Shown: one piece after another, positions 4,337 to 39,641 of the stretch
Layout: the number at the start of each line of letters is the position of its first letter
Numbering within the stretch: position 1 is the first letter of the stretch
Assembly: GCA_041671125.1 (NCBI GenBank)
Contig: JBAZCA010000002.1
Coordinates: 137,529-201,528, forward strand
DNA from: Patescibacteria group bacterium
Lineage (GTDB): Bacteria > Patescibacteriota > Patescibacteriia > Patescibacteriales > JBAZCA01
Length of the DNA stretch: 64,000 nt
Reading direction: 5' to 3'
Program-made: the position numbers and the translations under genes
The notes under the pieces: generated by a model
Seen by the model: the letters and a program-made list of their open reading frames with translations, nothing else
What the model was told of the DNA's origin: nothing
Databases searched by the model: none

Positions 4337-4437
4337 CCACAAATTAACAAACCCGCGAATCAACGAATTAACAACGAATCTACGAATAAATTAAAAAATA
4401 TATTTGTAGATTTGTAAATGATTTGTTGATTTGTGGG
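4337..4437 (+). repeat. Imperfect palindrome built from ACAAAT/ACGAAT words (putative RNA hairpin after the GT2 stop codon)
   Basis: The left arm CCACAAATTAACAA...GAATCTACGAATA pairs with the right arm TATTTGTAGATT...TTGTTGATTTGTGGG. Several mismatches are G:T, which is wobble-compatible on the + strand. Confidence 0.6.
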
Positions 4438-4510
4438 TAAATTAAGGTGTTTAGACCAAGTTTTTTTCATTATTATTTATACTATTTTTAATGCATAAAT
4501 GCGGTTAACT

Positions 4511-5374
4511 ATGAAAAAAATCAAGAAAGCCATCGTGGCGGTCGCCGGTTCGGGGACGCGGTTCCTTCCGGCCACTAAAGCCATGCCTAAGGAAATGCTT
4601 CCCATCGTGGATAAGCCGATTATCCAGCTCGTGGTTGAGGAATTGGTGGAAGCCGGAATAGAGGACATAATCCTCGTTACCAAATGGGATAAGAAGCCTT
4701 TGGAAGATCATTTTGACAAAGCCTGGGCGCTGGAGAATGAGTTAAAAAAATCAGGCAAGGAAAAAATGTACCGGGAAATTAAGAACATTTCCGAAATGGC
4801 CAATTTTATTTATGTCCGCCAAAAAGGCCCTTACGGCAACGGGACGCCAATTCTCTCGGCCGCCAGCCTGGTTCGCGACGAACCATTCGTCCATGTCTGG
4901 GGGGATGATCTCGTTAAATCAAAAGTATCATTTACCAAGCAGATGGTGGATGATTACGCTCTGCACGGCTGTCCCATGATCGGGGTGCAGGAAGTGCCGG
5001 AATGCGAAACTTCCCGCTACGGCATTGTTAAGCTGAAAGATAAGACCATGGAAATTGAAGATATTATTGAAAAGCCGGAACCGGGAAAATCGCCCTCCTG
5101 CCTCGCTGATTTTGGGCGGATGATTTTAAACCAGGAAATTATAGACATCCTTCGGAAAATCCCGCTCGGGAAAGACGGCGAACTCTGGACCGTTGACGCT
5201 ATCCGCGAATACGTCCGGCAAGGCAATAAGTTCATGGCGAAAAAAATCATTGACGGCGAATGGCTTACTACCGGCGACCCGCTGAATTACCTTAAGGCTG
5301 TAGTTAAGTACGCCGTGGACAGGGAAGACATCGGCCAGGATTTCCGGGCGTTTGCCAAAGGAATTATAAATTAA
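4511..5374 (+). CDS. galU: UTP--glucose-1-phosphate uridylyltransferase
   Basis: KAIVAVAGSGTRFLPATKAMPKEMLPIVDKPIIQ is the GalU signature. Start moved to MKKIKK (4511) by analogy with GalU N-termini. Confidence 0.9.
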   Translation: MKKIKKAIVAVAGSGTRFLPATKAMPKEMLPIVDKPIIQLVVEELVEAGIEDIILVTKWDKKPLEDHFDKAWALENELKKSGKEKMYREIKNISEMANFIYVRQKGPYGNGTPILSAASLVRDEPFVHVWGDDLVKSKVSFTKQMVDDYALHGCPMIGVQEVPECETSRYGIVKLKDKTMEIEDIIEKPEPGKSPSCLADFGRMILNQEIIDILRKIPLGKDGELWTVDAIREYVRQGNKFMAKKIIDGEWLTTGDPLNYLKAVVKYAVDREDIGQDFRAFAKGIIN

Positions 5375-5393
5375 CATCCGGCGAGATAAAAAA

Positions 5394-5428
5394 GCAGGGA
5401 ACAAAATTTTTTGTTCCCTGCTTTTTTC
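5394..5428. terminator. Bidirectional rho-independent terminator between convergent galU and the PEGA gene
   Basis: GCAGGGAAC / GTTCCCTGC perfect 9-bp stem with an A/T-rich loop, flanked by an A-run on one side and a T-run on the other. Confidence 0.75.
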
Positions 5429-5438
5429 GCCTGAAAAA

Positions 5439-6809
5439 CTATCTTATCATTAATTTATATATCCCGTTCGCGCCCTTATCTGAACCGAAAAAATAAATTG
5501 CTTCTCCGCCGTCGTCCAGAGCCGGAGAGGAAACAAAATCCATTTTCGCGAGCGTTGTGACTTTTCTCTCGCTACCAGAAAGCTCCAGCATGTTAATTGA
5601 ATCAGGAGAGGTAAAAATTATGAATTTACCGTCCGGATGCCAGATCAGGTCTTTTACTTCCTGGCTTAGGCGGGTAAGGAGTTCGCGGCCGGCACCGCCG
5701 GATCCGGCTTTCCAGATCTCAAAATCATTGGCGAAAAAAAAATTATTACCGTCAATCCGGCTGACTTTCGCGGCATTATTTATGATTTCTTTTATTGGCG
5801 AAAAAGCGGTCGGGTCAATCAGGTAAAGGATTTTACGGTTTTTATCCAAAAGGCTTATGAGGCTGTTTCCGGCGTCAATAAATTCATAAGCCTGGGAAAA
5901 AGGCAGTTCTATGCTCCGTTCGGTTTTCGCGTCTTTGATATTCCAGATATTTAAGAATACTTTGCTGGAAATACGGCTAGCATAAGCGAGACGGTCCCCG
6001 AAAACAGAAAAATCTTCCGCCTCGCCGTTAATTTTAACCAGGCTTTCGGCGTCTTTCCGATCCGGGGCAATCCGGTAAATTTCGCCCGACCTTAAAAAAT
6101 AAATATTTTCCTGGTTCGCGCCGTCAAATTTTATCAGCCCATAATCTTTCACTAATATCGGCGCGAGATCAACGCCCGTCCAGCCAGCGGCCGCGCTGAA
6201 AAGTTTTTCTCTGATCACGGCCGCACTGCCGTCAGCCGCCCAAACGGCTTTTTCGGTTCCGGCCGCTCCGCCCAATCCGGATGTTGCTTTATTGCCGATG
6301 GAAAATATTTCTCCGCCTTTTTCGGCCGCGTAAAAATAATTTTTGCCATCGGGCGATAAAGAAGCTGAACTGCCAGACGACGCGGCCATGAGCAGGGGCA
6401 AATCTTTCCTTATAAGCACCACGCCCTCAAAATTAGCCGCCTCGCCGGAACTAATTTTAATTTTTCTTTCCCAGTCCCAGTAACCGGAGAGTTCCAGCTT
6501 TACCGCATATTCGCCGGGAAGAAGATTTTTTATTTTGACCGGCGTGGCTATCGGCCGCGCCCCGCCTAAAATTCCCGTCAGTCCGGCGACCGTCCGAAGA
6601 CTGCCGTTTAAGTAAACCGCCGCGCCTTTGGGGAGGGTTTCAATATTCAGCACCCCGGTTTTTTCCACCCGCCCGGAACTAAGGTTTAATTTATAGCCGG
6701 CCGCGTAAAGCATAACCAGCGGGGTGATCACGAGGAATGACGTTATAAATGATATAAATAGTATCTTTCTCAGTCTGCTGGACATGAATAATAAATCAAA
6801 AATTATCAA
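5439..6809 (-). CDS. Membrane-anchored PEGA-domain protein with PD40/TolB-like beta-propeller repeats
   Basis: N-terminal TM helix. A PEGA-like block (LNIETLPKGAAVYLNG...LPGEYAVKLELSGYWDWERKI). Repeated SPDGK/HPDGK motifs. An alternative start at 6785 is possible. Confidence 0.6.
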   Translation of the reverse strand: MIIFDLLFMSSRLRKILFISFITSFLVITPLVMLYAAGYKLNLSSGRVEKTGVLNIETLPKGAAVYLNGSLRTVAGLTGILGGARPIATPVKIKNLLPGEYAVKLELSGYWDWERKIKISSGEAANFEGVVLIRKDLPLLMAASSGSSASLSPDGKNYFYAAEKGGEIFSIGNKATSGLGGAAGTEKAVWAADGSAAVIREKLFSAAAGWTGVDLAPILVKDYGLIKFDGANQENIYFLRSGEIYRIAPDRKDAESLVKINGEAEDFSVFGDRLAYASRISSKVFLNIWNIKDAKTERSIELPFSQAYEFIDAGNSLISLLDKNRKILYLIDPTAFSPIKEIINNAAKVSRIDGNNFFFANDFEIWKAGSGGAGRELLTRLSQEVKDLIWHPDGKFIIFTSPDSINMLELSGSERKVTTLAKMDFVSSPALDDGGEAIYFFGSDKGANGIYKLMIR

Positions 6810-6923
6810 TAATCAATTACCAATGATCAATGAATTTCCAATTATCAATTTTTCAATTTAAAAATTGCATCATTGTAAAATTGAAAATTCATTGAAAATT
6901 GATCATTGATAATTGGTAATTAT
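6801..6923. repeat. Long AT-rich imperfect palindrome of CAATTA/CAATGA words between divergently ending genes
   Basis: AATTACCAATGATCAATGAATTT... on the left versus ...AAAATTGATCATTGATAATTGGTAATT on the right. Confidence 0.5.
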
Positions 6924-6966
6924 CTTCTCATTATTAATTTCTTATGTTAATTCATCGGTTAAATTC

Positions 6967-8463: not shown

Positions 8464-8487
8464 TAATTAATAGTTTAAGGCTTAAAT

Positions 8488-9518: not shown

Positions 9519-9621
9519 TGGCAAATTCCAAAATACAAATTCCACCCGCCCGAACGCATCAGACGGGCGGGAATTCCAAAAATTCTTTGGAGCTTGGGTT
9601 TTGAAATTTGGAATTTACGCT

Positions 9622-11207: not shown

Positions 11208-11211
11208 ATTT

Positions 11212-11291
11212 CCCGTAACTCACAACTCATAACTTTATTTGCCAGTCTAAAAGTTAATTTGAGTTATGAGTTATGAGTTACGGGTTGTGAG
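11212..11291 (+). repeat. Imperfect palindrome of GTAACTCA/CATAACT words between permease genes
   Basis: CCCGTAACTCACAACTCATAAC pairs with GTTATGAGTTATGAGTTACGGG (one mismatch over 22 nt). Confidence 0.65.
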
Positions 11292-11293
11292 AT

Positions 11294-12091
11294 ATGCGTA
11301 AATACCTTACCATCGCCAAAAACAAAACCCAGGCCGAGTTCTCGCACCGGGCTAACGTCTTCGCCTATATCGGCGGCAACATGCTGGATTTATTCGTGCA
11401 GGTCGTTATCTGGACGGCGATTTTCAGTTCGGTTTCCGCGGTCGGCGGTTATACGAAAAACGAAATGATCACTTACGTTGTCGTCGGCTGGATTTTCATG
11501 TACCTCTCAACCAACTACGGCTATGAAGAATACATAAAAAAGGACGTCCACGAAGGCAAACTTTCAAACTATCTCATCAAGCCGGTTAATTACTTAAGTT
11601 ATATTTCTTTCCATTCAATCGGCCGGCTTCTTTTCGCTTTCTCTATTATCCTTCTTCAGGCTTTATTCTTTATTTTATTTTTTCGCGAGACGCTTATTTT
11701 CAGCCTGAATCCGGCCGGAGTGATAATTTTTATCTTGATGTTTATTTTTTCCTACGCCATAAAATTTTCCATCTCGGTTATTATCGGTTTTATGTCATTC
11801 TGGGCTTCTGACGTATCAGGCCTTTATTTCGCCTTAAATATCTTAAACCGTTTTTTATCCGGCGCTTTTTTTCCTATCGCTTTTCTTCCGCCCCTGGCCG
11901 CGAAGTTAAGTTATTTTTTTCCGTTCACTTACACCTATTTCCTTCCAATCCAGTTTTATCTCGGAAAAAACTCTTTGGCCGACGGAGCGTTGATATTAGC
12001 CGGCCAGGCGTTATGGATTATTATTTTGTACATAATTATAAAATTCGTCTGGAAAAAAGGAATATATAAATATGAAGGCACGGGAATATAA
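11294..12091 (+). CDS. ABC-2 family permease, paralog 3
   Basis: MRKYLTIAKNKTQAEFSHRANVF; HEGKLSNYLIKPVNYL; clearly paralogous to 12157-12954. Confidence 0.7.
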   Translation: MRKYLTIAKNKTQAEFSHRANVFAYIGGNMLDLFVQVVIWTAIFSSVSAVGGYTKNEMITYVVVGWIFMYLSTNYGYEEYIKKDVHEGKLSNYLIKPVNYLSYISFHSIGRLLFAFSIILLQALFFILFFRETLIFSLNPAGVIIFILMFIFSYAIKFSISVIIGFMSFWASDVSGLYFALNILNRFLSGAFFPIAFLPPLAAKLSYFFPFTYTYFLPIQFYLGKNSLADGALILAGQALWIIILYIIIKFVWKKGIYKYEGTGI

Positions 12092-12098: not shown

Positions 12099-12159
12099 CG
12101 TAACATGGAACACATAACACATAACATTTTTTGTTCCATGTTCCATGTTATATGTTATG
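12099..12159 (+). repeat. Imperfect palindrome of CATAAC/CATGGAAC words, right arm overlapping the next start codon
   Basis: AACATGGAAC...GTTCCATGTT 10-bp stem plus CATAACA/TGTTATG register variants. Confidence 0.6.
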
Positions 12160-12954: not shown

Positions 12955-13017
12955 TTAATGCAAAATGTAAATATCAAAATGTAAAATGACAAATCAAAAT
13001 TTTAAAATTATTTTGTC

Positions 13018-13095
13018 GTCATCCTGAGCGTAGCGAAGGATCCCGTGAATAGAGCTATTACCACGAGATTCTTCGGCCTTCGGCCTCAGAATGAC
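13018..13095. repeat. Miniature inverted-repeat element, short form (78 bp), GTCATCCTGAG...CTCAGAATGAC family
   Basis: GTCATCCTGAGCGTAGCGAAGGATCCCGTGAATAgagctattACCACGAGATTCTTCGGCCTTCGGCCTCAGAATGAC. Confidence 0.85.
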
Positions 13096-13129
13096 GAATT
13101 ATTTTTGATTTTTTCATTTTTAATTACTT

Positions 13130-14119
13130 ATGCCGATTATTTCCGTAAAAAATCTCAGTAAAACCTACGAGTACTATAAAAAAAGCCCGGGTCTTTGGGC
13201 CTCGGTTAAGGGCTTGTTCGCGCGGGAAAAACTTTTTACCAAAGCGGTAAAAGATATTAGTTTTACGATTGACGAAGGCGAGCTGGTCGGGTTTTTAGGC
13301 CCCAACGGGGCGGGGAAGACAACGACCCTAAAAATGCTCTCGGGAATTTTGTATCCTACTTCTGGCGAGGCGGGCGTCATGGGTCATACGCCCTGGAAAC
13401 GCGAAAAAGAATACCAAAAACAATTCGCCCTGGTCATGGGCCAGAAAAACCAGCTTTGGTGGGATTTGCCGGCCATGGAAAGTTTTATTTTAAACAAGGA
13501 AATTTACGAGGTATCAGACAAAGATTTTAAATACAACCTTGACGAACTGATTGAGCTTTTAGGCATAAAAGACATCCTGGACATCCAGGTCAGAAAACTT
13601 AGCTTAGGCCAGAGAATGAAGTGCGAGCTTACGGCCGCGCTTTTACATAAGCCCCGCGTTTTATACCTTGACGAACCAACCATCGGGCTGGACGTAATAG
13701 CTCAGAAAAATATCCGCGACTTCATAAAAAAGTACAACCGGGAAAATAAAACTACAATCATGCTAACGTCCCATTACATGGAAGATATAAAAGAGCTCTG
13801 CGGCCGGGTAATCATCATTGACCGGGGAACGATAGTTTACGACGGCGGGCTTGATTCGCTGATTACTAAATACGCGCCCTACAAGGAATTAAATATCACC
13901 TTTAACGGCGAAGGTGTAAAAAGGGAAGTAATAAAAAAATTCGGCCAGGTGGCAAAATACGAGCCGTACGCCGTTACCCTTAAAGTGGACCGGGAAAAGG
14001 TAAAAGACGCAGCGCAAAAAATTCTAGCTTCCGACCTGCCGGTGGACGATATTATGATTGACGAGGTTGACGTTGACGACGTGATAAGGCGGATGTTTGG
14101 CCAAAAATATAACACGTAA
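13130..14119 (+). CDS. ABC transporter ATP-binding protein (COG4586-like) with C-terminal extension
   Basis: Walker A GPNGAGKTT, signature LSLGQRMK, Walker B VLYLDEPTIGLD, H-loop TSHYM. Confidence 0.9.
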   Translation: MPIISVKNLSKTYEYYKKSPGLWASVKGLFAREKLFTKAVKDISFTIDEGELVGFLGPNGAGKTTTLKMLSGILYPTSGEAGVMGHTPWKREKEYQKQFALVMGQKNQLWWDLPAMESFILNKEIYEVSDKDFKYNLDELIELLGIKDILDIQVRKLSLGQRMKCELTAALLHKPRVLYLDEPTIGLDVIAQKNIRDFIKKYNRENKTTIMLTSHYMEDIKELCGRVIIIDRGTIVYDGGLDSLITKYAPYKELNITFNGEGVKREVIKKFGQVAKYEPYAVTLKVDREKVKDAAQKILASDLPVDDIMIDEVDVDDVIRRMFGQKYNT

Positions 14120-14142
14120 TATGTAACATAAAACAAATTCTT

Positions 14143-15820: not shown

Positions 15821-15856
15821 TTTCGTTGTATATTACACTAAACTTATAATATTCGC

Positions 15857-15938
15857 TTAACGTGGAACGCATAACGCGTAACGATTTTCTTCTAAACGGT
15901 TTAATTCGTTACGCGTTCCACGTTACGCGTTATGCGTA
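15857..15938 (+). repeat. Imperfect palindrome of AACGCGTAACG/GGAACG words upstream of greA
   Basis: AACGTGGAACGC(ATAA)CGCGTAACGA pairs with TCGTTACGCGTTCCACGTT. Confidence 0.65.
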
Positions 15939-15942
15939 AATT

Positions 15943-16401
15943 ATGTCTGACCAAATTATTACTCCCGAAGGCTATAATAAGCTTAAACAGGAGCTTAACA
16001 ACCTCGTTAACGTCCGGCGGCGCGAGATTGCCGAGCGGATTGAAAAAGCCAAAGAGCTCGGAGACCTATCTGAAAACGCCGAATACACCGACGCGAAGGA
16101 AGCCCAGGCTTTTAACGAAGGCCGGATCCAGGAAATCCAGTCCATCCTGAAAAATTATACCGTCGTCGCTAACGGCGGCCAAAAGGGAATTGTGAGCATG
16201 GGTTCGCGAGTCACGGTAAAAGTTGAAGGCAAAACCAAAATTTATTCCATAGTATCATTTAACGAAGTTGATCCGGCTGAAGGAAAAATTTCCAACGAGT
16301 CGCCCCTGGGACACGCGTTTTTAGGCCACAAAAAAGGCGACCGAATAAAGGTAGAAACGCCGAGAGGGGAGACTGAATACGAGATTGTGAAGATTGAATA
16401 G
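15943..16401 (+). CDS. greA: Transcription elongation factor GreA
   Basis: ITPEGYNKLKQEL...RREIAERIEKAKELGDLSENAEYTDAKEAQAFNEGRIQEI plus the C-terminal FKBP-like domain. Confidence 0.9.
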   Translation: MSDQIITPEGYNKLKQELNNLVNVRRREIAERIEKAKELGDLSENAEYTDAKEAQAFNEGRIQEIQSILKNYTVVANGGQKGIVSMGSRVTVKVEGKTKIYSIVSFNEVDPAEGKISNESPLGHAFLGHKKGDRIKVETPRGETEYEIVKIE

Positions 16402-16412: not shown

Positions 16413-16556
16413 GTCATCCTGAGGCCGATTAGGCCGAAGGATCTAATAATGGATGAGGGTGTTATAATTATCACATCCGTAGATCCCCGCCCGACTGAAC
16501 GTCGTTCGGGCGAGGTCGGTTCGGGCGGGCTTCCTCCCTGCGGTCGTCAGGATGAC
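16413..16556. repeat. Inverted-repeat element, long form (144 bp), same family
   Basis: GTCATCCTGAGGCCGATTAGGCCGAAGGATC...GATCCCCGCCCGACTGAACGTCGTTCGGGC...CTGCGGTCGTCAGGATGAC. Confidence 0.85.
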
Positions 16557-16623
16557 AAAAAACAGTTTTGTCCTTTTAAATTGCCGGCAGTTAAAAGTTC
16601 TTTAGACGGTTTTGCTGATATTT

Positions 16624-16758
16624 GTCATTCCCATCCCGTGTCAACGCACGGGATAAACTTCAACGGGAATCCAAGATTATAACGCTGGGATGTGGTTTGC
16701 TAGATTACAAGCATTATCATCTCCTAACCCTGGATTCCGGCTCGCTGGCCGGAATGAC
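16624..16758. repeat. Inverted-repeat element, diverged GTCATTCC...GGAATGAC subfamily (135 bp)
   Basis: GTCATTCCCATCCCGTGTCAACGCACGGGATA...GGGAATCC ... GGATTCCGGCTCGCTGGCCGGAATGAC. Confidence 0.7.
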
Positions 16759-16826
16759 AAAATAATTTATCCTCAAAATTGTCTGAGGAACTTTTTAAAA
16801 AAACATTTTTACCCGGAAAGGGGGTG

Positions 16827-17111
16827 ATGGAAATGACGGCGAAGTGGATTTTGGCGGCTGTTCTGGCCGCCTTTGCTTTTTTAGCAGTCGCCTTTACTCT
16901 CTACGGAGAGTGGAGGCGTCGGCGGGGAGCGACCCCGCCGGCGGAGCTGGAAAGATGGCGAGAGGGCAACCGGGCAGCCCTCGACGCCCTGGGCGAGAAG
17001 CAGAGGGTTAAAGAAAAAACCCTTTGCGAAATCGCCTTCGGCGAGCTCCAAAAGGAACTCGCCGAACCAGCTCAGGGGCAAGGCCGTCCTCAGAGGACGG
17101 CCAGACAATGA
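16827..17111 (+). CDS. GC-rich orphan single-pass membrane protein
   Basis: AAGGGGG Shine-Dalgarno-like site before ATG 16827. TM helix WILAAVLAAFAFLAVAFTLY followed by a charged Arg/Glu-rich tail. Codon usage is visibly GC-rich compared with neighbours. It has its own terminator. Confidence 0.5.
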   Translation: MEMTAKWILAAVLAAFAFLAVAFTLYGEWRRRRGATPPAELERWREGNRAALDALGEKQRVKEKTLCEIAFGELQKELAEPAQGQGRPQRTARQ

Positions 17112-17148
17112 CGCCAATAACCCGCGCGCGGTTGAGCGCGCCAACAAC

Positions 17149-17182
17149 CCGGCCTATTTTCCACCACAGGCCGGTTTTTTTT
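17149..17182 (+). terminator. Rho-independent terminator
   Basis: CCGGCCT / AGGCCGG stem followed by T8. Confidence 0.75.
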
Positions 17183-17236
17183 GACTTTTGGGGTAAAATG
17201 GGGTAAGTTTAGAGTAGTTATTTTGAATTACAAAAC

Positions 17237-17314
17237 GTCATCCTGAGCGAAGCGAAGGATCTCGTGTTTAGCGGAAATACCACGGGATTCTTCGGCTTTC
17301 GGCCTCAGAATGAC
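17237..17314. repeat. Miniature inverted-repeat element, short form (78 bp)
   Basis: GTCATCCTGAGCGAAGCGAAGGATCTCGTG...CACGGGATTCTTCGGCTTTCGGCCTCAGAATGAC, nested between GAATTACAAAAC and GTTTTGTAATT. Confidence 0.85.
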
Positions 17315-17418
17315 GGAGTAAAAAAGATGTTTTGTAATTTAAAGTAGTCAGACATTCACTTTTTATGATCTGTTTATTATTTACTGTTTACTATTGTCTA
17401 TTTACTTTTTACTAACTT

Positions 17419-19010: not shown

Positions 19011-19161
19011 GTCATCCTGAGCGAAGTGAAACGAAGCGAAGGATCTACAAATGTGATAAATAATTTAAAGGTTATTTTAGAGGCAAAATTATTTCTTAGA
19101 TTGTTTCCTTGCCTGATTATCGCAGCCGCAGATCCTTCCTCCCTTCGGTCGTCAGGATGAC
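19011..19161. repeat. Inverted-repeat element, long form (151 bp)
   Basis: GTCATCCTGAGCGAAGTGAAACGAAGCGAAGGATC + 85-nt AT-rich core + GATCCTTCCTCCCTTCGGTCGTCAGGATGAC. Confidence 0.85.
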
Positions 19162-21537: not shown

Positions 21538-21545
21538 TTAATTAT

Positions 21546-22826: not shown

Positions 22827-22833
22827 CCACACC

Positions 22834-23264
22834 GTCATCCTGAGGCCGATTAGGCCGAAGGATCCCGTGAATATATAGAAATATGCGAAATACAAAATAT
22901 GGCTACGTATATATCAACACTAATAAGCGACATACTGTTCTTTATACGGGAGTTACCTCAAGATTATTCGGAAGATCTGGCGAGCATAAAGAAAAACTTA
23001 ACAAAAGCAGTTTCACATCCAAATACAATGTGGACAAGTTAGTATATTATGAGCATTATGAAAGCATCACCGACGCAATCGCGAGAGAAAAACAGATTAA
23101 GGGATATCTGCGGAAGAAAAAAATTGTATTAATTAATAGTCTAAATCCTGAGTGGAAAGATTTAAGCCTGGATTACTAATTATTATTCTGAATAAAGTAA
23201 AAGTAGTGAAAAATTCCACATTATTAGCTACTAACACGAGATTCTTCGCTACGCTCAGAATGAC
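22834..23264 (+). mobile_element. ORF-bearing (putatively autonomous) copy of the GTCATCCTGAG...CTCAGAATGAC element, carrying a GIY-YIG nuclease gene
   Basis: The same two arms as the 69-78 bp copies (left ...GAAGGATCCCGTGAATA, right ACACGAGATTCTTCGCTACGCTCAGAATGAC) are separated by an AT-rich 98-codon ORF instead of a short loop. Confidence 0.7.
22883..23179 (+). CDS. Small GIY-YIG nuclease family protein (COG2827/UPF0213-like)
   Basis: YGYVYI...HTVLYTGVTSRL..R..EHK...AIAREKQIKG: GIY/YIG elements, a conserved Arg and a distal Glu. Confidence 0.85.
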   Translation: MRNTKYGYVYINTNKRHTVLYTGVTSRLFGRSGEHKEKLNKSSFTSKYNVDKLVYYEHYESITDAIAREKQIKGYLRKKKIVLINSLNPEWKDLSLDY

Positions 23265-23273
23265 GTTGAAAAA

Positions 23274-24820: not shown

Positions 24821-24918
24821 ATTACAAATACACAAATAAAAACACAAATTCACAAATTTTACATTAATGCGTTAAACAAACATTCGTGAATTTGTGATAA
24901 AATTTGTGAATTTGCAAT
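24821..24918 (+). repeat. Imperfect palindrome of CACAAAT words
   Basis: ATTACAAATACACAAATAAAAACACAAATTCACAAAT versus ATTCGTGAATTTGTGATAAAATTTGTGAATTTGCAAT. Confidence 0.6.
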
Positions 24919-25556: not shown

Positions 25557-25662
25557 GTCATCCTGAGCGTAATGAAATGAAGCGAAGGATCTCGCGTTTA
25601 CACGGAAAAAGACGAGATCCTTCACTGCGTCCCGAAAAAATCGGGACTCCGTTCAGGATGAC
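25557..25662. repeat. Inverted-repeat element, intermediate form (106 bp)
   Basis: GTCATCCTGAGCGTAATGAAATGAAGCGAAGGATCTCG...CGAGATCCTTCACTGCGTCCCGAAAAAATCGGGACTCCGTTCAGGATGAC. Confidence 0.85.
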
Positions 25663-26095: not shown

Positions 26096-26129
26096 CACGA
26101 GATTCTTCGGCTTTCGGCCTCAGAATGAC
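26061..26129. repeat. Miniature inverted-repeat element, short form (69 bp)
   Basis: GTCATCCTGAGCGGAGCGAAGGATCCCGCATCTAACACGAGATTCTTCGGCTTTCGGCCTCAGAATGAC. Confidence 0.85.
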
Positions 26130-26142
26130 GTATTAAGAAAAT

Positions 26143-28042: not shown

Positions 28043-29173
28043 ATGACTCTATCAGTAAAAAAACGGATACTATTTTCCGGCGGGGGAACGGCGGGCTCGG
28101 TGAGTCCGCTTTTGGCGATTTACGATAGAATAACCTCACCCCCAACCCCTCTCCTTATTAAGGAGAGGGGAGAGTTTGAATTTTTCTGGATTGGAACCAA
28201 AAATGGAATTGAGCGGGAAATGGTTAAGCGCGAGGGCATACCTTTCAAGGCCATCTATTCCGGAAAATTACGCCGTTATTTCAGCCTGAAAAATTTTTCC
28301 GACATCTTTTTTTTAAAACTCGGATTTTTCCAGTCGCTTTTCATCATGCTAAAATGGCGGCCGGATTTAGTTATGAGCGCCGGCGGATTCGTTAGCGTCC
28401 CGGTTGTCTTCGCGGCCTGGGTCTTACGCGTCCCGGCGCTAATCCATCAGCAGGACGTCCGGCCGGGTTTAGCCAATAAAATAATGGCGCCGTTCGCCAA
28501 AGTGATTACCGTCACTTTTGAAAAATCATTAAAAGATTACGGCGAAAAAGCGGCATGGGTCGGGAATCCGGCGAGGAAAGTTCTCACGACTAAAAACTCA
28601 CAACTCAAAACTCAAAATTTTTTTAAGGGCGCGGATGAGGATAATAATTTGCCGGTTTTGCTAATTGTCAGTGGCGGTACCGGAGCAATGTTTATAAATA
28701 ATTTAGTCGCTAAATCAAAAAGCGAGCTCACAAAATTCTGTCAGGTTATTCATGTAACCGGTAAGAATAAAATTCCAAACTCCATCCCGCAAATTGTGGG
28801 ACCAAATATCAAATATCATCTTTTTGAATTCCTTCCGGCCGATAAAATGGCAGAAGCCATGAAAAAAGCCGACCTGGTCATAACAAGAGCCGGCATGAGC
28901 TTTTTAACCGAGCTTTCTTTTTTAGGCAAACCGGCGATAATCATTCCGATTCCGGATTCGCACCAGACTGACAACGCGCGGGTTTTTTTAGAAAGGGAGG
29001 CGGCGGTTATTTTAGAACAAAAAAATCTGGACGAGGATAAATTCGTTTTTCAGGTAAAATCTCTTTTAACGGACGTCCGGACACGCGAAAAACTTAGTGC
29101 CAACATAAGCCGGATCATGAAACCGGGAGCGAACGAAGAAATGCTGAAAATCATCAGCCGGTTGCTGGCTTGA
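28043..29173 (+). CDS. murG: Undecaprenyldiphospho-muramoylpentapeptide beta-N-acetylglucosaminyltransferase
   Basis: G-loop GGGTAGSVSPLLAI; C-terminal TRAGMSFLTELSFLGKPAIIIPIPDSHQTDNA. Contains two repeat-derived in-frame insertions (see findings). Confidence 0.9.
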   Translation: MTLSVKKRILFSGGGTAGSVSPLLAIYDRITSPPTPLLIKERGEFEFFWIGTKNGIEREMVKREGIPFKAIYSGKLRRYFSLKNFSDIFFLKLGFFQSLFIMLKWRPDLVMSAGGFVSVPVVFAAWVLRVPALIHQQDVRPGLANKIMAPFAKVITVTFEKSLKDYGEKAAWVGNPARKVLTTKNSQLKTQNFFKGADEDNNLPVLLIVSGGTGAMFINNLVAKSKSELTKFCQVIHVTGKNKIPNSIPQIVGPNIKYHLFEFLPADKMAEAMKKADLVITRAGMSFLTELSFLGKPAIIIPIPDSHQTDNARVFLEREAAVILEQKNLDEDKFVFQVKSLLTDVRTREKLSANISRIMKPGANEEMLKIISRLLA

Positions 29174-29273
29174 TTACTCTGCCTGCCAGTTCGGCATTCA
29201 ATTCGCCGGCCAGTTTTTCGGCGGCTTTTTTTGTTATTCCCGTGCGGGAATAGTAGGTGATGAGGGTTTTCAT
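29154..29273 (-). pseudogene. N-terminal remnant of a flavodoxin-like gene
   Basis: The minus-strand ORF MKTLITYYSRTGITKKAAEKLAGELNAELAGRVIKPATG* resembles the flavodoxin N-terminus and phosphate-binding loop (MK.LIvYYSrTGNTkk.Ae.ia). It stops after 39 codons, inside the murG 3' end. Confidence 0.45.
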
Positions 29274-29899: not shown

Positions 29900-30709
29900 T
29901 CAACCTTTGGCGGCAATGGCGTAATACTTTGATGGCGGCATCCTAAGATCACCCTGAATCCTAATATTATTGTAATAATATATCTGATGGTAAATTCTTT
30001 CAATCAGTTCACCCTCTGTTTCACACCGGTTCGGGTTTTCCAGCTCCAGCTTGAACTGCGAATAAAATGATTCCTGATGATGATTTTCCCAGGGACTGCC
30101 TTTCTTGCTCATTGACACAACCACCCCTAGTTTTTCCAGAAATACCGCGTGCTCTTCAGACTGATATTCGGATCCTTGGTCTGAATGGAAATATCGGGGC
30201 AGAATGCCCCGTTTCCTGATAGCATCCATGACTGCCGCTTTAACCAAGTGCCGGTTGTGCCGGCTGGATACGGCGAAGCCGATTATTTCCTTGCCGTAAA
30301 CGTCAATTACCGTGGCCAGATAAAGAAACCTGTCTTTGTGCCGGATGTAGGTGAAATCGGCCGCCCAGGCAATATTGTGATCAGATATATCTTTGTCTTT
30401 TATCTCATTCCTGTAATGAGCGACCGGCAAATTGATATCGCCTTTCTTTTTTGGCCATTTGCGGCGGCAGAGCCGGGGCTTTAGTCCGTTTGCCTGCATT
30501 ACCCGGAATATTTTCTTGTGGTTTTTTCCGAGGACAATGGCTACCCGGCGGTAGCCGTAGGCCGGATTGGAATCCATGACTTCGACAACTTCCTTTCTTA
30601 CTTCTTCATCCTGAACTTTCTTTTTTGACCGGTAATACAGAGTGGAACGGGCAATTCTTAGTTTCCTGGCTAATGCTTTTTTAGATATCACTCCTTTTTC
30701 TGCCAGCAA
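29900..30709 (-). CDS. IS3-family transposase OrfB (DDE integrase domain), normally expressed as an OrfAB fusion by -1 frameshift
   Basis: WAADFTYI (D), HSDQGSEY (D), and an ENHHQESFYSQFKLE region (E), giving the DDE triad spacing typical of IS3. Confidence 0.9.
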   Translation of the reverse strand: MLAEKGVISKKALARKLRIARSTLYYRSKKKVQDEEVRKEVVEVMDSNPAYGYRRVAIVLGKNHKKIFRVMQANGLKPRLCRRKWPKKKGDINLPVAHYRNEIKDKDISDHNIAWAADFTYIRHKDRFLYLATVIDVYGKEIIGFAVSSRHNRHLVKAAVMDAIRKRGILPRYFHSDQGSEYQSEEHAVFLEKLGVVVSMSKKGSPWENHHQESFYSQFKLELENPNRCETEGELIERIYHQIYYYNNIRIQGDLRMPPSKYYAIAAKG

Positions 30710-32379: not shown

Positions 32380-33742
32380 GGGCGTAGGGATGACTATGCT
32401 CGGCCAGTTTCTCGCGGAAAAAGGCTTTAGCGTTAGCGGGTCGGATACTGAGGAAAAATTCATGACCGAAAAAGCGCTCGCTAAAGCCGGCATTCAGGTA
32501 ATTGAAGGCTTTAATGAAAATAACATCCCGCCGGACGCCGACCTTATAATCCATTCCATCGCCTATAACCCGGAAAACAACTCGGAAGTCGCGAAGGCTC
32601 AAACCGGAAAAATAAAGACCCTTAATTACGGCGAAGCGGCCGGTATGTTTTTTAACGAATATTACGGCATTGCCGTCGCCGGATCGCACGGCAAGACTAC
32701 TACTACGGCCTGGCTCGGATACGTGCTCCTGAAATCAGGATTTCACCCCAATGTCATGGCCGGTTCGCACGTCCCCCAGTTCGGCGGAACGAGCATTGCC
32801 GGAGACTCGGATTATCTTGTCGCCGAGGTGGATGAATACGGCAACAAATTCCAGTATTACCGCCCGCGGGTCGCGCTCTTAAATAACATTGATTATGACC
32901 ATCCGGATTTTTTTCCGACTCCGGACGACTATGAAAAAGTATTTATTGAATTCATAAAAAAAATCCCGAAAAAGGGTTTTCTTGTCGCTAATTTTGACGA
33001 CCCGGTTATAAAAAAAATTGCCCGGGTAAATTGCTTAGGCAAAGTTATAAGCTACGCTTTGAATGATTCGGAAGCCGATTATATCGCTTCGGAAATAACC
33101 CAAAAAGGCGACCGCCAGTATTTCCGCGTTATGGCCGAGGATAATGATTTGGGAATTTTTTCCATCCGGCTTTCCGGCAGGCATAACGTTTTTAACGCGC
33201 TCGCGGTTATTGCCGCGGCGGTTGAGCTTTCCGCCGGGCTTTCGGACATAAGAGAGCATCTCGGCGAATTCGCCGGGACTGACCGGCGGATGGAATTTTT
33301 AGGCGAATTTAACGGCGCGGCTCTATACGACGATTACGCGCATCACCCGACCGAAATAAAGACCACTCTGGAAGGGGTAAGGGAAAGCCATCCGGATAAA
33401 AAATTAATCGTAGTTTTTCATCCGCATACTTTTACGAGGACTAAAGCGCTCTTAAACGACTTTGCCCGAAGTTTTGCCGCGGCTCACGAGCTTATTGTTC
33501 TTGATATCTACGGTTCAGCCCGGGAAAAACAGGGCGGAGTGCATTCTAAAGACTTAATTGAAAAAATAATTTTAAGAAACGCTGAAACAGGGAATACGAC
33601 CCAGACGGTAAGACACATCGCGACCTTGGCCGAGTGCGAAAAATATTTAAGCGGTCGGCTTGGGCGCGGCGATTTATGCCTTCTTATGGGCGCCGGCGAC
33701 GTATTTAGAATTGGAGAAAATCTCGTAACCCGTAACTCATAA
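32336..33742 (+). CDS. murC: UDP-N-acetylmuramate--L-alanine ligase
   Basis: IYMIGIKGVGMTMLGQFL; P-loop VAGSHGKTTTTAWL; DYAHHP. Start moved to MDISKIKK (32336). Confidence 0.95.
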   Translation: MDISKIKKIYMIGIKGVGMTMLGQFLAEKGFSVSGSDTEEKFMTEKALAKAGIQVIEGFNENNIPPDADLIIHSIAYNPENNSEVAKAQTGKIKTLNYGEAAGMFFNEYYGIAVAGSHGKTTTTAWLGYVLLKSGFHPNVMAGSHVPQFGGTSIAGDSDYLVAEVDEYGNKFQYYRPRVALLNNIDYDHPDFFPTPDDYEKVFIEFIKKIPKKGFLVANFDDPVIKKIARVNCLGKVISYALNDSEADYIASEITQKGDRQYFRVMAEDNDLGIFSIRLSGRHNVFNALAVIAAAVELSAGLSDIREHLGEFAGTDRRMEFLGEFNGAALYDDYAHHPTEIKTTLEGVRESHPDKKLIVVFHPHTFTRTKALLNDFARSFAAAHELIVLDIYGSAREKQGGVHSKDLIEKIILRNAETGNTTQTVRHIATLAECEKYLSGRLGRGDLCLLMGAGDVFRIGENLVTRNS

Positions 33743-33815
33743 TTCATAACTCATTTTATTGGCACGTTAAATAATTAAATTTAAGTTGCGAGTTACGAGT
33801 TATGGGATATGAGAG
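33724..33815 (+). repeat. Imperfect palindrome of GTAACTCA/CATAACTC words; the left arm encodes the last murC codons
   Basis: CGTAACCCGTAACTCATAATTCATAACTCAT versus GTTGCGAGTTACGAGTTATGGGATATGAG. Confidence 0.5.
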
Positions 33816-35117: not shown

Positions 35118-35138
35118 TGACAATTGCCGGACAGTCCG

Positions 35139-35927: not shown

Positions 35928-35969
35928 ATACTCAATTTACAATTATCAATTAACAATTTACAATAAATT

Positions 35970-37466: not shown

Positions 37467-37779
37467 AGGTCTATTGATTGCGTTAAAGCCATTATCAGCG
37501 TCAATTCAGCGTTTTAATCCGCGTCCCAAGCGTCATAAACAAAGATATATGGACAAAATTATTAGCTTAATGAAAAAACCGGTAAATTAGATTATTCAGC
37601 GCATCTCTATTATAGTATACGCAGGGCAGTTGTGGCAAATTACAGGCTGGACATTTGCTAATATTTGTGCTTTAATAGGGAGTCTCACTGATCCTTTAAA
37701 ACCAGCCAGCGCTTTTTTTTGGCTGAAAAGATATTCTGTCAACAACTATAATGCATTATTCAACTTGAAGGGAGAAGTT

Positions 37780-38757
37780 ATGGAAAACTTGAAAAATGCG
37801 ACTAAGGTAGCCCTGCTAGCAATTTTTATTCTTATTGTCGGGCTTTTTATTGCACTCTATATCCGTACCGGCGTGGAACACCGGCGGGTTGAAGAAAACC
37901 GGTTGTTTTCGCTTGAAACCGTCGGTCAGGTGGCCGTCGGTGTCCTCCTAGATGAGGCGGCCAGCCACCCCGAGGCGAGGTCTTGGTTCCTCGTTCCGCG
38001 ACCCTGGGCTGAGGACAGCGTTCGAAACGCCTATGAGAAGCTCTTGAACGATAAGGGCTTCGCTACACGGGAGAGCGCGAACGGCGACCGCTTCAGGGAA
38101 ACCTGGCGGTCGTTCCTGGGCAAATGCCAGGCGGACCCCGGGTTCGCCTGGGAAGTCTACCAAGCCAACCGGGCGGAAGTTATCGCCCGGGCCAAGGCCA
38201 ATCCAGCCCTCACCAAGGAGGTCGCTTTCTTCGCGGCCTACTTAGAATTCGTTTCTCACGACGGGGTTGTCCGCGATCTCGTTACTCGTATGTGGTCGCA
38301 GGATGAGGAGCGTCGGGAGGCATACCTCGCCGCTCGGGACAAAAAGCTCGCCTTCGTCCAAAATTTTGAGGGGAAGTGGAAGCAATGGAAGGACGAATCC
38401 TCCCGGGAAGACATTGACTGGACCTGGGGAGAGTTCAGCCTGGAAGAGAATCTCGGACGCCTGCGGGCCGAGGAACAGGCCGCCATAAAAGCCTGCAAAG
38501 GCATCCGCGAGGCCCAGGAGGAGGTCAAAAAATCTCTCCTCGGCTATTTGCGAATAGCCCAGCCTCGGGTTTTTGAAATCCGGGGCGTTGACCGAGCCGC
38601 GCTTGACGCCATCATCGATCACTGGCTCTCCGGGAGCCAAATCGTGAACAAAATCCTTTTGCCCGTCTACGAGGCTGAACGCCTCAGACGGGATGGGCGA
38701 TTGGACGTCGCCCGGAGCATTAGCAACGATTTGGTAAAGGCGCTAAAGACTGAATAA
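37780..38757 (+). CDS. GC-rich orphan single-pass membrane protein
   Basis: The SD AAGGGAGA precedes ATG 37780. TM helix VALLAIFILIVGLFIALYI. The remaining ~290 codons are strikingly GC-rich, and several long shadow ORFs in other frames confirm the compositional shift. Confidence 0.5.
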   Translation: MENLKNATKVALLAIFILIVGLFIALYIRTGVEHRRVEENRLFSLETVGQVAVGVLLDEAASHPEARSWFLVPRPWAEDSVRNAYEKLLNDKGFATRESANGDRFRETWRSFLGKCQADPGFAWEVYQANRAEVIARAKANPALTKEVAFFAAYLEFVSHDGVVRDLVTRMWSQDEERREAYLAARDKKLAFVQNFEGKWKQWKDESSREDIDWTWGEFSLEENLGRLRAEEQAAIKACKGIREAQEEVKKSLLGYLRIAQPRVFEIRGVDRAALDAIIDHWLSGSQIVNKILLPVYEAERLRRDGRLDVARSISNDLVKALKTE

Positions 38758-39042
38758 GCCAGAAGCTCCTCAGGACTGCCCGTCGTTAAAGGATAATATA
38801 ATCAAACCAATTCCAGCGGCGGGCATGGCTAAACCATTAAAACAACCAACAAAGGACGCTTACGATTAACAGAATGGAAACGAGACACCCATTCAGTTGA
38901 TTGCCCGCGTCCTTTTTAACTGCAAAAATTGACACCAAAAATTGACTTTTTGCCAAAAATGAGTTATTCTGGTGCTAGGTTAAATTAGCTGAATTTTAAC
39001 GATTTGGCATTTTTATTATAGCTCTTTAAATTCCATTAATTT

Positions 39043-39582
39043 CAGGGTAAACGGATAGCTACTTTGCCCCGCATTTGCGGGACAGAGAGGAAAGTCCGGA
39101 CTCCCTCCGGCGTGAGCGCTGGCGTAGCGGCAGTGGGTAATACCCACCCGCCGACGTCCCGCATTTGCGGGAATAAGACGAGGGAAAGTGCCACAGAGAC
39201 AATACTAGCCGATGCTTCGCATCGGAAATTACAAATTACAAATTCCAAAATTGCTTAAAATTTTTGGAAATTGGGATTTGGCGCTTGGAATTTCTGGCGC
39301 GGAGCACCGGTGAAAGGTGAAAAGTTATCCTATGTTTATGGTTATAAGCTTGTCCCGAATCGGCGCGAGCCGGAGGGATGGATATCCATATAACTATAAG
39401 CCAGGGATTTTTCCGGCTGGCAACAGCCGAGAACGGTAAACCCTGCCTGGAGCAAGAGCAAAGTCCGCCCTAGGCGGATAAAAAGTGGCTCGCTTGATTT
39501 CGCGGAGTAATCCGCGGGACAGATAAATGGCTATCCATCCTTCGCGAGAAGGTGGACAGAATCCGGCTTACAGTTTGCCCTG
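39043..39582 (+). ncRNA. rnpB: RNase P RNA, bacterial type A, unusually long (~540 nt)
   Basis: P1 pairing AGGGTAAAC/GTTTGCCCT. P2 GGATAGC/GCTATCC. CR-I GAGGAAAGTCCGG (39087). AGTGCCACAGAGACAA. GGTAAACCCTGCCTGGAGCAAGAGCAAA. CR-V ACAGAATCCGGCTTA (39556). Confidence 0.9.
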
Positions 39583-39602
39583 AAATTAGTGGAATTTTGA
39601 TT

Positions 39603-39641
39603 CACATAACATGTTACATGTTATGTGTTACATGTTATGTG
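39603..39641 (+). repeat. Palindrome of CACATAACATGT words directly before the sugar-transferase start codon
   Basis: CACATAACATGTTACATGTTATGTGTTACATGTTATGTG. Confidence 0.6.

Follow-up and report, generated by a model that had tools for sequence, protein, structure and literature searches.

Heptamer repeats in other genomes

Heptamer repeats such as the STRRs (short tandemly repeated repetitive sequences) have lacked an explanation since 1990. The classic STRR units are few and contain G and C, for example CCCCAGT. In cyanobacteria STRR heptamers form inverted arrays between genes, able to produce hairpins between co-transcribed genes such as hupS and hupL, and roles in transcript stability or translational coupling have been proposed for them (PMC2670836). 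STRR heptamers are also reported in cyanobacterial rnpB (Vioque 1997). Another heptamer, TAACTGA, occurs as direct repeats in marine Beggiatoaceae, some Cyanobacteria and Bacteroidetes (MacGregor 2015, PMC4679880). Heptamers are described as the commonest unit of long simple sequence repeats in bacteria and are ascribed to polymerase slippage (Mrazek 2007, as summarized in PMC4679880).

The DNA considered here, a 64-kb stretch (the window) from a genome of the Patescibacteria, or candidate phyla radiation, contains repeats much like the STRRs: tandem 7-nt units, located between genes, in inverted arrays able to form hairpins. One such array is inserted in helix P12 of RNase P RNA, and the insertion is absent from a related locus, L082. 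The setting is different, the cyanobacterial genomes being large and multicellular and the window coming from streamlined Patescibacteria, another phylum. So are the words, which in the window's clade are AT-rich, very diverse and as a rule palindromic. The STRR unit CCCCAGT is absent here, as is TTGGTCA.

The TAACTGA repeats are similar in position. They too are heptamer arrays that end within a few nucleotides of a start codon, in spacers without Shine-Dalgarno sequences; copies occur now and then in open reading frames, and the genes that follow the arrays share no functional pattern. One word of the window (TAACTCA, family B) is a single base away. Proximity to start codons is common to both, but a single forward word is not: in BOGUAY the repeats are essentially one word in one orientation (1 inverted set in 170), whereas the window and the related loci use at least 88 distinct heptamers, most arrays being paired with inverted copies. 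No tandem TAACTGA was found in the window or related loci.

Two other kinds of element can be set aside. The attC sites of integrons are imperfect palindromes of the form R''/L''...L'/R', with cores RYYYAAC...GTTRRRY, and follow promoterless cassettes near intI. The hairpins of the window are flanked by housekeeping genes in conserved synteny, have ends (such as GAGTTACGGG) that do not fit GTTRRRY, and have no integron integrase adjacent. TIGR-Tas arrays are made of units of about 36 nt, or of stem-loops, with box C/D motifs, beside a Nop-domain Tas gene (PMC12045711). The window has units of 7 to 8 nt in singly dispersed hairpins and no Nop/Tas domain.

Periodic hairpins in the window

An earlier note on this DNA had listed long inverted repeats, built from short words and filling the gaps between genes. 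An inverted repeat was found at every position listed, and others had been missed (Table 1). All nine of the main hairpins are far more stable than dinucleotide shuffles of the same sequence (z from -3 to -12.7), and the one that had been called weaker is so. Ungapped inverted repeats with a score of at least 12 number 21 in the window, where shuffles that preserve local composition lead one to expect 0.5; with a score of at least 17 there are 7, where none is expected. The words are real tandem units, since TRF finds a period of 7 or 8 at every hairpin: 7 at 6801, 11260, 12109, 15907, 33722 and 39609, and 8 at 4356/4402, 21457/21495 and 24824. The elements are 40 to 165 bp long, their stems have a GC content of 19-38%, and they fall into at least five word families of one to three copies each in the 64 kb.

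Table 1. Periodic hairpins, heptamer arrays and an associated box in the window. Folding is given as z relative to dinucleotide shuffles, + strand / - strand, with the folded segment where its limits differ. Hairpins and arrays marked † were not in the earlier note.
Position	Strand	Feature	Context	Folding
4337-4438		Family A hairpin of period 8, built from ACGAAT/ACAAAT, with ends CCC...GTGGG	directly after GT2 stop codon	4337-4437: -12.7 / -5.8 (-42.8 / -26.3 kcal/mol)
6781-6945		CAAT-word hairpin, period 7	flanked by two minus-strand genes; PEGA-domain gene start 16 nt away	-4.9 / -4.4
9521-9620†		AAATTCCA-word hairpin	exactly fills gap from NifU stop to ABC-2 start
11208-11295		Family B hairpin, GTAACTCA/ATAACTCA, period 7	stop 4 nt before, start codon 9 nt after	-6.6 / -8.8
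12099-12159		Family C hairpin, CATAACA/GGAACA words	abuts ABC-2 start codon	-3.2 / -3.4
12957-13127†		period-7 AT-rich hairpin	loop holds class-1 repeat 13014-13098
14112-14142†		Family C hairpin, decayed left arm	intact orthologue is L087:1436-1517
15826-15834	+	promoter (-10)-like box TTGTATATT	after wzy stop, upstream of greA hairpin
15844-15944		greA leader hairpin, xxAACGy heptamers	3' arm homologous to relatives' (GCGTTAT)3-GCGAAAAT-ATG	15846-15944: -6.0 / -5.2
17373-17414†	+	direct-only heptamer array (TTTACTA)x6	lysS start codon 5 nt downstream
21450-21538		Family A hairpin	enolase ATG 7 nt downstream	-9.8 / -8.2
24821-24918		ACAAAT-word hairpin	between iPGM and HD gene	-4.3 / -5.5
33721-33815		Family B hairpin	overlaps murC stop codon; then TGCTAAAAT box, murB start	33724-33815: -5.8 / -4.6
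35933-35964†	-	direct-only heptamer array, TTAATTG on minus strand	Memo-family gene start 6 nt downstream
39209-39310†	+	heptamer-word hairpin, (AAATTAC)3.4 + complement	lengthens RNase P RNA helix P12	-5.4 (-42.5 kcal/mol)
39603-39641		Family C hairpin	RNase P RNA ends 16 nt before it; sugar-transferase start about 4 nt downstream	-3.3 / -3.7
41085-41117		weak Family C hairpin	between sugar-transferase and GT1 genes	-2.0 / -0.8
54189-54228†		self-complementary heptamer array GTCAATT/GACAATT	within CCA-adding enzyme coding sequence

It had been said that the hairpins are not copies of one sequence. This is partly wrong: two pairs, 4337 with 21450 and 11212 with 33724, are about 77-80% identical throughout, loop and flank included. 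Both pairs reach a local alignment score of 41, where the background is 9 +/- 3.4, and the members of each pair have irregular units, loops and tails in common. The hairpin at 6781 resembles others in related loci (L121:9850, L094:3197 and L145:2881), and a GC mini-hairpin (9548-9575) is nested in that at 9521.

The phenomenon is not confined to the window. Periodic hairpins occur 6.4 times per 100 kb in 846 kb of relatives and 0.66 times in 1.36 Mb of controls. Period-7 arrays number 26.6 per 100 kb in the window, 16.5 in the relatives (80 Patescibacteria loci) and 1.8 in the controls, an excess of about tenfold in the relatives. The arrays favor non-coding DNA, which makes up 13% of the sequence and holds 55% of them, and the palindromic arrangement is the rule among those between genes (116/153).

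Position relative to genes

The gaps that the hairpins fill are gaps between genes read in the same direction. Co-directional gaps hold 43 of the 45 intergenic periodic hairpins (43 in 75.3 kb), as against 1 in 11.2 kb of divergent gaps and 1 in 53 convergent gaps. About one fifth of the co-directional spacers in the window contain a heptamer-repeat palindrome of 60 to 165 bp. In most of the window copies a stop codon lies 0 to 10 nt ahead of the 5' arm or inside it, and the 3' arm ends 0 to 10 nt before the next ATG. The start codons next to hairpins have no Shine-Dalgarno sequence. In long spacers the hairpin adjoins the downstream start in 13 cases and the upstream stop in 4 (p ~0.05). Hairpins or arrays are also found in the 5' leader of greA, in coding sequence and, in RNase P RNA, at the tip of helix P12. 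The 3' arms are rich in ATG, and several ORF starts in the window are called inside them.

Comparison with close relatives

L082 has the same gene order as the window and a MurC that is 81% identical, and its junctions lack the hairpins: NUDIX and eno are separated by 20 nt, murC and murB by 44 nt, and the iPGM and HD genes overlap. A second relative, L087, has 22 nt between NUDIX and eno, 10 nt between eno and iPGM, the same iPGM/HD overlap, and hairpins at other spacers. In RNase P RNA, the window has a helix P12 that exceeds the minimal P12 of L082 by about 85 nt. The hairpins at the window junctions are lineage-specific insertions or expansions, since the corresponding junctions of close relatives measure 20 nt or consist of overlapping genes.

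Some orthologous spacers have kept a hairpin in other words: wzy to greA and ABC2 to ABC-ATPase (window and L087), and the one that follows RNase P RNA (window and L082). Others, such as NUDIX to eno and iPGM/HD in L082 and L087, have none. In the greA leader, relatives share the words of the 3' arm until GreA identity falls to about 60-70%, and the TTGTATATT box after the wzy stop is conserved in about 40 related loci; in many species the leader is 43 to 60 nt long and has no hairpin. Hairpins kept despite full turnover of their words, and the conserved words of the greA arm, point to selection at some sites.

The hairpins are unlikely to be the main terminators

The suggestion that transcription in this genome ends mainly at these hairpins, which have no U-tract, retains very little probability. 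Like rho-independent terminators they are stable stem-loops after stop codons. In addition, the 3' arms in the window are rich in T and G, so that partial hairpins would be followed by U-rich words, and promoter-like boxes follow the hairpins at 4337 and 33724. They differ from rho-independent terminators, however, in being longer, AT-rich and without a U-tract (their tails, GGGTAAATTAAGG, TTGTGAGAT and TAATTATATG, contain no run of U), and none appears in the lists of terminator-like sequences. Most stand so near the next ATG that a promoter would not fit between. The greA copy is downstream of the conserved promoter-like box, the essential RNase P RNA contains a hairpin of the same word family and a coding sequence contains another copy, and genes overlap at the same junctions in relatives. 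Convergent gene ends, where terminators should be found, almost never have a periodic hairpin and use ordinary GC-stem/T-run terminators instead (5388-5427, 29203-29234 and 62787-62835), so it is unlikely that the hairpins serve as the main terminators.

RNA devices, mobile DNA or DNA sites?

A second suggestion was that G:U pairs on the coding strand, as at 4337, hint at function as RNA. Only 4337 and 33724 fit. In a set of 40 periodic hairpins from co-directional gaps in the clade, mismatches that would be G:U in the sense strand number 34 and those that would be C:A number 41 (p = 0.49), and the sense strand folds better in 14 cases, the antisense strand in 23. Such a lack of bias is among the outcomes that the earlier note had itself named as speaking against functional RNA structures. 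At 24821 the antisense fold is better by 10.6 kcal/mol. The lack of a G:U bias or an energy advantage in the sense strand counts against the view that the hairpins are functional RNA stem-loops punctuating polycistronic or leader mRNAs, whether by coupling translation or by setting mRNA stability as barriers to RNase III or exonucleases. So do the high diversity of their sequences, the bare housekeeping junctions of the closest relatives and the many short greA leaders. That view has attractions: the way most window copies fit between stop and ATG, the excess next to starts, the depletion of divergent gaps (which contain only promoters), the orthologous spacers that retain a hairpin in other words and the similar roles proposed for STRR hairpins and TAACTGA repeats. 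I regard it as possible but doubtful. In its coupling version, the base of the stem would join stop and start, and the terminating ribosome would melt the outer stem, exposing a start region that has no Shine-Dalgarno sequence. It is a good deal less probable that the stem base abutting the start serves these Patescibacteria, which lack Shine-Dalgarno sequences, as an initiation landmark (either a coupling device that the upstream ribosome melts or a pseudo-5' end), whose architecture is conserved while its words turn over by slippage.

Might the hairpins instead be non-autonomous mobile DNA, akin to REPs, REPINs or MITEs and mobilized in trans by a hairpin-recognizing enzyme encoded elsewhere in the genome, their periodicity being secondary? 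REPs, which are linked to RAYT transposases, resemble them, as do BIMEs and REPINs, in being short imperfect palindromes between the genes of operons, in families that vary between relatives. The arms of REPs are not tandem arrays of words, as those of the window hairpins are, and REPs are 20-40 bp, G/C-rich, high in copy number and of one consensus, with GTAG/CGTC tags (PMC3733652); the ends of the window elements carry no such tag, and their length and few copies per family do not fit. Organelles offer another likeness, microsatellite-like palindromic units that fill the intergenic spacers of compact genomes, though they share no sequence with the window hairpins. The palindromic microsatellites of Fusarium mtDNA are optional between sister species and have been considered selfish or mobile (PMC7218506), and sponge RHEs and Volvox palindromic repeats are described in the same terms (PMC2800124, PMC2670323). 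Mobility would account for homologous copies dispersed in the genome, for ends (CCCAC...GTGGG and CCCGTAAC...GTTACGGG) that recur across genomes, for presence or absence that varies among relatives and for insertions nested at hairpin tips. I nonetheless think it unlikely. Target-site duplications or defined ends are not demonstrable (the elements at 4337, 21450, 11212 and 33724 show no evident duplication, and the relatives' empty sites have diverged too far for alignment). A MITE has terminal inverted repeats and a target-site duplication and derives from a parent IS; here the inverted repeat takes up the entire element. The proteins of the window include no RAYT (Y1 transposase) or matching transposase; the sole transposase is an IS3-type rve protein, and its IS (29900-30709), the only one in the window, is unrelated to the hairpins. 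Viral contigs lack the family termini, 88 heptamers are hard to square with a single recognition sequence, and the likeness of AT-rich periodic words across genomes could be partly chance. Least credible of all is that the arrays are operator- or iteron-like sites on DNA, bound by proteins or resembling promoters. Family A words do resemble the greA box TTGTATATT, the hairpin at 21450 contains TTTGTATATTCG, the greA leader of locus L138 has TTGTATATT twice where the box usually stands, and TGATAAAAT in the 3' arm at 24895 looks like an extended -10 box. But AT-rich words match -10 boxes by chance, a period of 7 to 8 bp puts successive sites on different faces of the helix, the words are too many, copies lie within RNA and protein genes, and divergent promoter regions are depleted.

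A proposed reading: STRR-like palindromes and how they may arise

I propose, with moderate confidence, that the elements are STRR-like tandem repeats of 7 to 8 nt, arranged as inverted arrays, and thus a palindromic form of the long simple sequence repeats of prokaryotes. Their arms would lengthen or shorten one unit at a time through replication slippage. Slippage is inferred from the arms, which differ by unit-sized (7-nt) offsets and have extra unpaired units at stem ends, as it would predict; in pairs of loci that are 99% identical the hairpins are identical, with no unit indels. The likeness of the two arms may be maintained by selection dependent on pairing or by templated correction, and whole elements may occasionally reach new spacers.

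The STRR-like model would also explain why such insertions are tolerated: they fold back on themselves. A self-folding insert would rejoin stop and start, or the strands of an RNA helix that it interrupts, so its cost would be low and it could persist. The transcripts would form AU-rich stem-loops of 25 to 45 bp that RNA polymerase presumably reads through, as the contexts of some copies suggest (the greA leader past the TTGTATATT box, RNase P RNA and coding sequence). Pure neutrality does not predict the excess of hairpins next to starts. A possible secondary role is to influence the stability of mRNAs or the coupling of translation.

Significance

Patescibacteria are regarded as having streamlined genomes poor in repeats. 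Heptamer-repeat palindromes run through the whole clade nonetheless, misleading gene callers and inflating predictions of terminators and non-coding RNA. Natural pairs with and without a hairpin can be used to test the translation of leaders that lack a Shine-Dalgarno sequence. The STRR phenomenon is extended to a very different lineage, with hairpins between cistrons, nearness to start codons and an insertion in helix P12 of RNase P RNA common to both. These shared hallmarks suggest that the cause is a general one, mutational or structural, and not something in the biology of cyanobacteria.

Hairpins built from heptamers

The window comes from k141_371109, a metagenomic contig of 206.8 kb (ENA ERZ27249449). 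Homologues of its MurC (59-81% identity) bear the source names 'Patescibacteria group', 'Parcubacteria' or 'Candidatus Falkowbacteria', which places the organism, an uncultured one, in the candidate phyla radiation (CPR). Its genes are housekeeping ones, among them those for glycosyltransferases and ABC-2 permeases, greA, lysS, eno, iPGM, serS, murC, murB and gltX. An earlier note listed intergenic hairpins in it, named here by their start positions, and every listed region does contain an imperfect inverted repeat. On one strand or both, nine of the ten regions fold much more stably than dinucleotide shuffles (z = -12.7 for 4337-4437, -9.8 for 21450-21538, -6.6/-8.8 for 11208-11295), and 41085-41117, described as weaker, is so (z = -2.0/-0.8). 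Against 21 ungapped inverted repeats scoring at least 12 in the window and seven scoring at least 17, the numbers in shuffles with local composition kept are 0.5 and 0. The arms were said to be made of repeated words, and Tandem Repeats Finder resolves them into tandem arrays with a period of 7 or 8. Raw folding-energy scans mainly follow GC content and required correction for it. A screen for 6-mer words plus their reverse complements was too unspecific, with 8.6 matches per 64 kb in controls; in its place, periodic hairpins were defined by ungapped inverted-repeat score and arm periodicity. Heptamer tandem arrays also lie within genes, at 28583-28617, 43428-43469, 51734-51764 and 54189-54228 (MurG, GluRS, Fe-hydrogenase and CCA-adding enzyme), one of them a perfect (AATCGTC)4.4.

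Periodic-arm hairpins occur 6.4 times per 100 kb in related Patescibacteria loci (846 kb) versus 0.66 in unrelated bacterial loci (1.36 Mb). For period-7 tandem arrays the values are 26.6 in the window, 16.5 in relatives and 1.8 in controls, where periods 6 and 9 predominate; the non-CPR controls include loci of other phyla with enolases 54-61% identical, among the matches listed. The non-coding 13% of the sequence holds 55% of the arrays, and an inverted partner lies near 116 of the 153 intergenic ones. Counted in canonical form, 88 different heptamers serve as array units, a diversity that speaks for a process governed by the length of the unit and against a single factor binding one specific sequence.

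Features of the window (new: absent from the earlier note)
Position	Strand	Feature	Remarks
5388-5427		Ordinary terminator	Perfect 19-bp stem, A6/T6 on its sides
29203-29234		Ordinary terminator	
62787-62835		Ordinary terminator	
9521-9620		Hairpin, new	
12957-13127		Hairpin, new	Loop holds another repeat
39209-39310		Hairpin, new	Within RNase P RNA
14112-14142		Decayed copy, new	
17373-17414		Direct-only array, new	Just upstream of lysS
35933-35964		Direct-only array, new	Just upstream of minus-strand gene
54189-54228		Self-complementary GTCAATT/GACAATT array, new	Inside CCA-adding enzyme gene; translated ...MSIDNCQLTIVNS...
13014-13098, 17236-17316, 22830-22870 + 23235-23266, 25560-25660		G+C-richer repeat	GTCATCCTGAGCG...GAAGGATC...CTCAGAATGACG
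near 19140-19160 and 26113-26131		G+C-richer repeat	Partial ends
16440-17180		GC-rich (55-73%), strongly folding region	Between greA and lysS; preceded by TGTTATAAT (16460)
29900-30709	-	IS3-type transposase (rve integrase core + HTH domains)	Between murG and murC, beside AT-rich flanks
39043-39586		Class A RNase P RNA	
49550-49710		GC-rich 160-nt structured inverted repeat	AATTCCCCTCCTCGGAGGGG...CCCCTCTCAAGAGGGGAATT; between GAPDH and NuoF-like genes; z -6 to -8

Word families and other repeats

The hairpins had been held not to be copies of one sequence. There are indeed several word families, but within two of them the members are homologous. Hairpins 4337 and 21450 (family A, ACGAAT/ACAAAT words) are about 80% identical over some 95 nt, with a common irregular 11-nt unit and the tail GTGGGTwAATTA, and 11212 and 33724 (family B) are 77% identical, loop and trailing GGGwTrTGAGA included. 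Clustering by blastn-short overlooked these AT-rich pairs; local alignment against all hairpin pairs found them, both at a score of 41, about 9 SD over the all-pairs background. ACATAAC/GGAACA words are common to 12099, 39603, 41085 and a hairpin of a related locus (L087:1436), 6801 is similar to hairpins of L121, L094 and L145, and family A recurs in L107, L115, L123 and L138 with common CC(C)ACRAAT...ATTYGTGGG ends. Such cross-genome likeness of AT-rich periodic sequence is suggestive only. In viral contigs, family A termini gave one match, a chance one, and family B termini none.

The G+C-richer repeat of the table is presumably the first class to which the earlier note's 'second repeat class' is the sequel. 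For two copies the site is the loop of an AT-rich hairpin, and a pair stands on both sides of a small GIY-YIG-like ORF (22883-23179) between eno and iPGM, an insertion missing from the relatives L082 and L087. Small GC-rich hairpins of the CCCGCCC...GGGCGGG type are nested in periodic-hairpin loops (9548-9575, L135:3375-3415, L123:11605-11660, the L092 greA leader); they are also found as 30-nt and 87-nt presence/absence indels within Wzy coding sequence of loci 90-99% identical (L092/L097/L111), a pattern reminiscent of mitochondrial GC clusters. A small protein of the transmembrane/coiled-coil type, encoded in the region 16440-17180, is also conserved in L087, and no Rfam family is significant there. 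The long ORF call of the NuoF-like gene begins within the inverted repeat at 49550-49710. The transposase shows no relation to the hairpins.

Gain, loss and replacement among relatives

L082 has its gene order in common with the window and an 81% identical MurC. The window's NUDIX>eno, iPGM>HD and murC>murB spacers measure 166, 136 and 94 nt, each with a hairpin; in L082 the first is 20 nt, the iPGM and HD genes overlap and the third is 44 nt, all without hairpins. L087, with proteins 75-94% identical, also lacks them at NUDIX>eno and iPGM/HD. Two of its other spacers do carry periodic hairpins: HD>next gene and ABC-ATPase>wzy, the second of which has nothing but a decayed arm in the window. 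Some orthologous spacers keep a hairpin while its words change, as the earlier note proposed to test: wzy>greA and ABC2>ABC-ATPase (window versus L087); in the spacer after RNase P RNA, L082 has a hairpin with words other than the window's. These junction differences indicate that hairpins are gained, lost and replaced over short evolutionary time, with certain spacers persistently occupied. Between near-identical locus pairs, no unit-number polymorphism was seen in hairpins.

Position relative to genes and transcripts

Surveyed over 678 co-directional, 53 convergent and 42 divergent gaps, intergenic periodic hairpins number 43, 1 and 1, respectively. Divergent gaps are depleted per base, with one hairpin against about six expected from gap lengths by my own arithmetic. 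Many hairpins take up the spacer from stop to start codon; in longer spacers 13 adjoin the downstream start and four the upstream stop (p about 0.05, with starts taken as first-ATG ORF calls). The 3' stem base lies no more than about 10 nt from the likely start at 6801, 9521, 11212, 12099, 15846, 21450, 24821, 39603 and 41085, the distance at 6801 ranging from overlap to about 16 nt by choice of start and stem boundary. Mechanical ORF starts fall within ATG/GTG-rich 3' arms at 12145, 39552/39618, 41109 and 21498, and comparison with paralogues and orthologues suggests true starts 8-48 nt downstream (12157, about 39646, 41121, 21546). No Shine-Dalgarno signal precedes the window's start codons, where the bases are merely A/T-rich. 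Several TGnTAnAAT-like -10 boxes stand just 7-17 nt from ATG (e.g. 60926(-), 33818, 53800-53818, 4478-4498), pointing to mRNAs with a very short leader or none.

The order wzy>greA>lysS is kept in about 50 metagenome loci, and in nearly all a TTGTATATT-like sequence, most simply read as a -10 region, directly follows the wzy stop. The shortest spacers (43-60 nt) contain this box alone; many of the remaining loci have a hairpin between it and the greA ATG, its 3' arm often (GCGTTAT)3-GCGAAAAT-ATG, homologous to ...CGTTACGCGTTATGCGTAAATT-ATG in the window. Given that placement, the hairpin at this site is part of the 5' leader, and transcription has to pass through it. In L094 the order is opposite, with the hairpin upstream of the box.

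A hairpin is also found in RNase P RNA. By covariance-model alignment, the tip of helix P12 carries some 85 nt of inserted sequence. In this insert (AAATTAC)3.4 precedes its complementary words GGAAATT/GGGATTT, of the word family of 9521, and the region folds into a single extended helix (-42.5 kcal/mol, z = -5.4). P12 is minimal in L082 (UCCCGA-GCAA-UCGGGA) and bears a different insert in L084. Since this essential RNA contains such a hairpin, RNA polymerase evidently reads through structures of this kind, and a self-folding insert appears to be tolerated at a helix tip. Large inserts differ between the RNase P RNAs of the window, L082 and L084, as do the helices that carry them (at L082:15497-15640 about 109 nt ahead of P11; at L084:16098-16300 79 nt plus the P12 insert), and the RNAs reach 517-584 nt compared with a 367-position model.

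Origin and possible roles

The suggestion that the hairpins are the genome's main terminators is not borne out: ordinary terminators serve convergent gene ends and operon ends, and termination is the least likely role for the hairpins. Scans for consensus promoters and terminators stayed at or near shuffle level and were uninformative. The argument for sense RNA from G:U pairs in the arms fits 4337, with folding energies of -42.8 versus -26.3 kcal/mol, and 33724; 24821 favours the antisense strand (-22.2 versus -32.8), and the rest are roughly balanced. Among 40 co-directional periodic hairpins of the window and related loci, the better-folding strand is sense in 14 and antisense in 23, and arm mismatches would give 34 G:U and 41 C:A in sense RNA (p = 0.49), so that strand bias, whose absence the earlier note itself listed among the signs against functional RNA structures, is lacking. 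The AC-rich arm comes first in all eight informative window hairpins; this chirality is not upheld across the clade (28 versus 20), and a reading as Rho rut sites, built upon it, was dropped for that reason. A role at the RNA level, in translational coupling, stability or processing, seems to me rather unlikely; it stays alive because some spacers still have a hairpin after all its words have turned over and because hairpins favour the start-codon side.

A literature search found no description of such elements in Patescibacteria. On defining features, an assignment to TIGR-Tas arrays, attC sites, CRISPR or classical REPs was rejected; TIGR-Tas arrays, likewise common in CPR, have units of another size, other motifs and the need for an adjacent Tas gene (PMC12045711). 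The elements match the phenomenon of cyanobacterial STRR (short tandemly repeated repetitive) sequences, tandem repeats of 7 bp whose hairpins are found in the hupS-hupL spacer and close to further genes, with proposed roles in transcript stability or translational coupling (PMC2670836). They also resemble the TAACTGA repeats of marine Beggiatoaceae, which lie a few nucleotides from start codons in spacers without Shine-Dalgarno sites (PMC4679880). As summarized there, Mrazek et al. (2007) found heptamers to be the commonest unit of long simple sequence repeats in bacteria; a possible reason is that a slipping polymerase engages a stretch of 7 nt. Organelle genomes have analogues, 'palindromic microsatellites' and hairpin elements, optional between sister species (PMC7218506, PMC2800124, PMC2670323).

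The most economical account takes the elements for heptamer repeats akin to STRR and arranged as palindromes. I infer mechanism, dispersal and any function alike: unit-step slippage on a hairpin scaffold would make arrays grow, and occasional copying would carry them to new sites. A fixed unit length with free word choice, extra unpaired units at stem ends, arms offset by 7 nt, and fast gain and loss are all in keeping with this. The elements occupy what would be the places least harmful for a self-folding insert: gaps between stop and start codons, a leader, the tip of an RNA helix.
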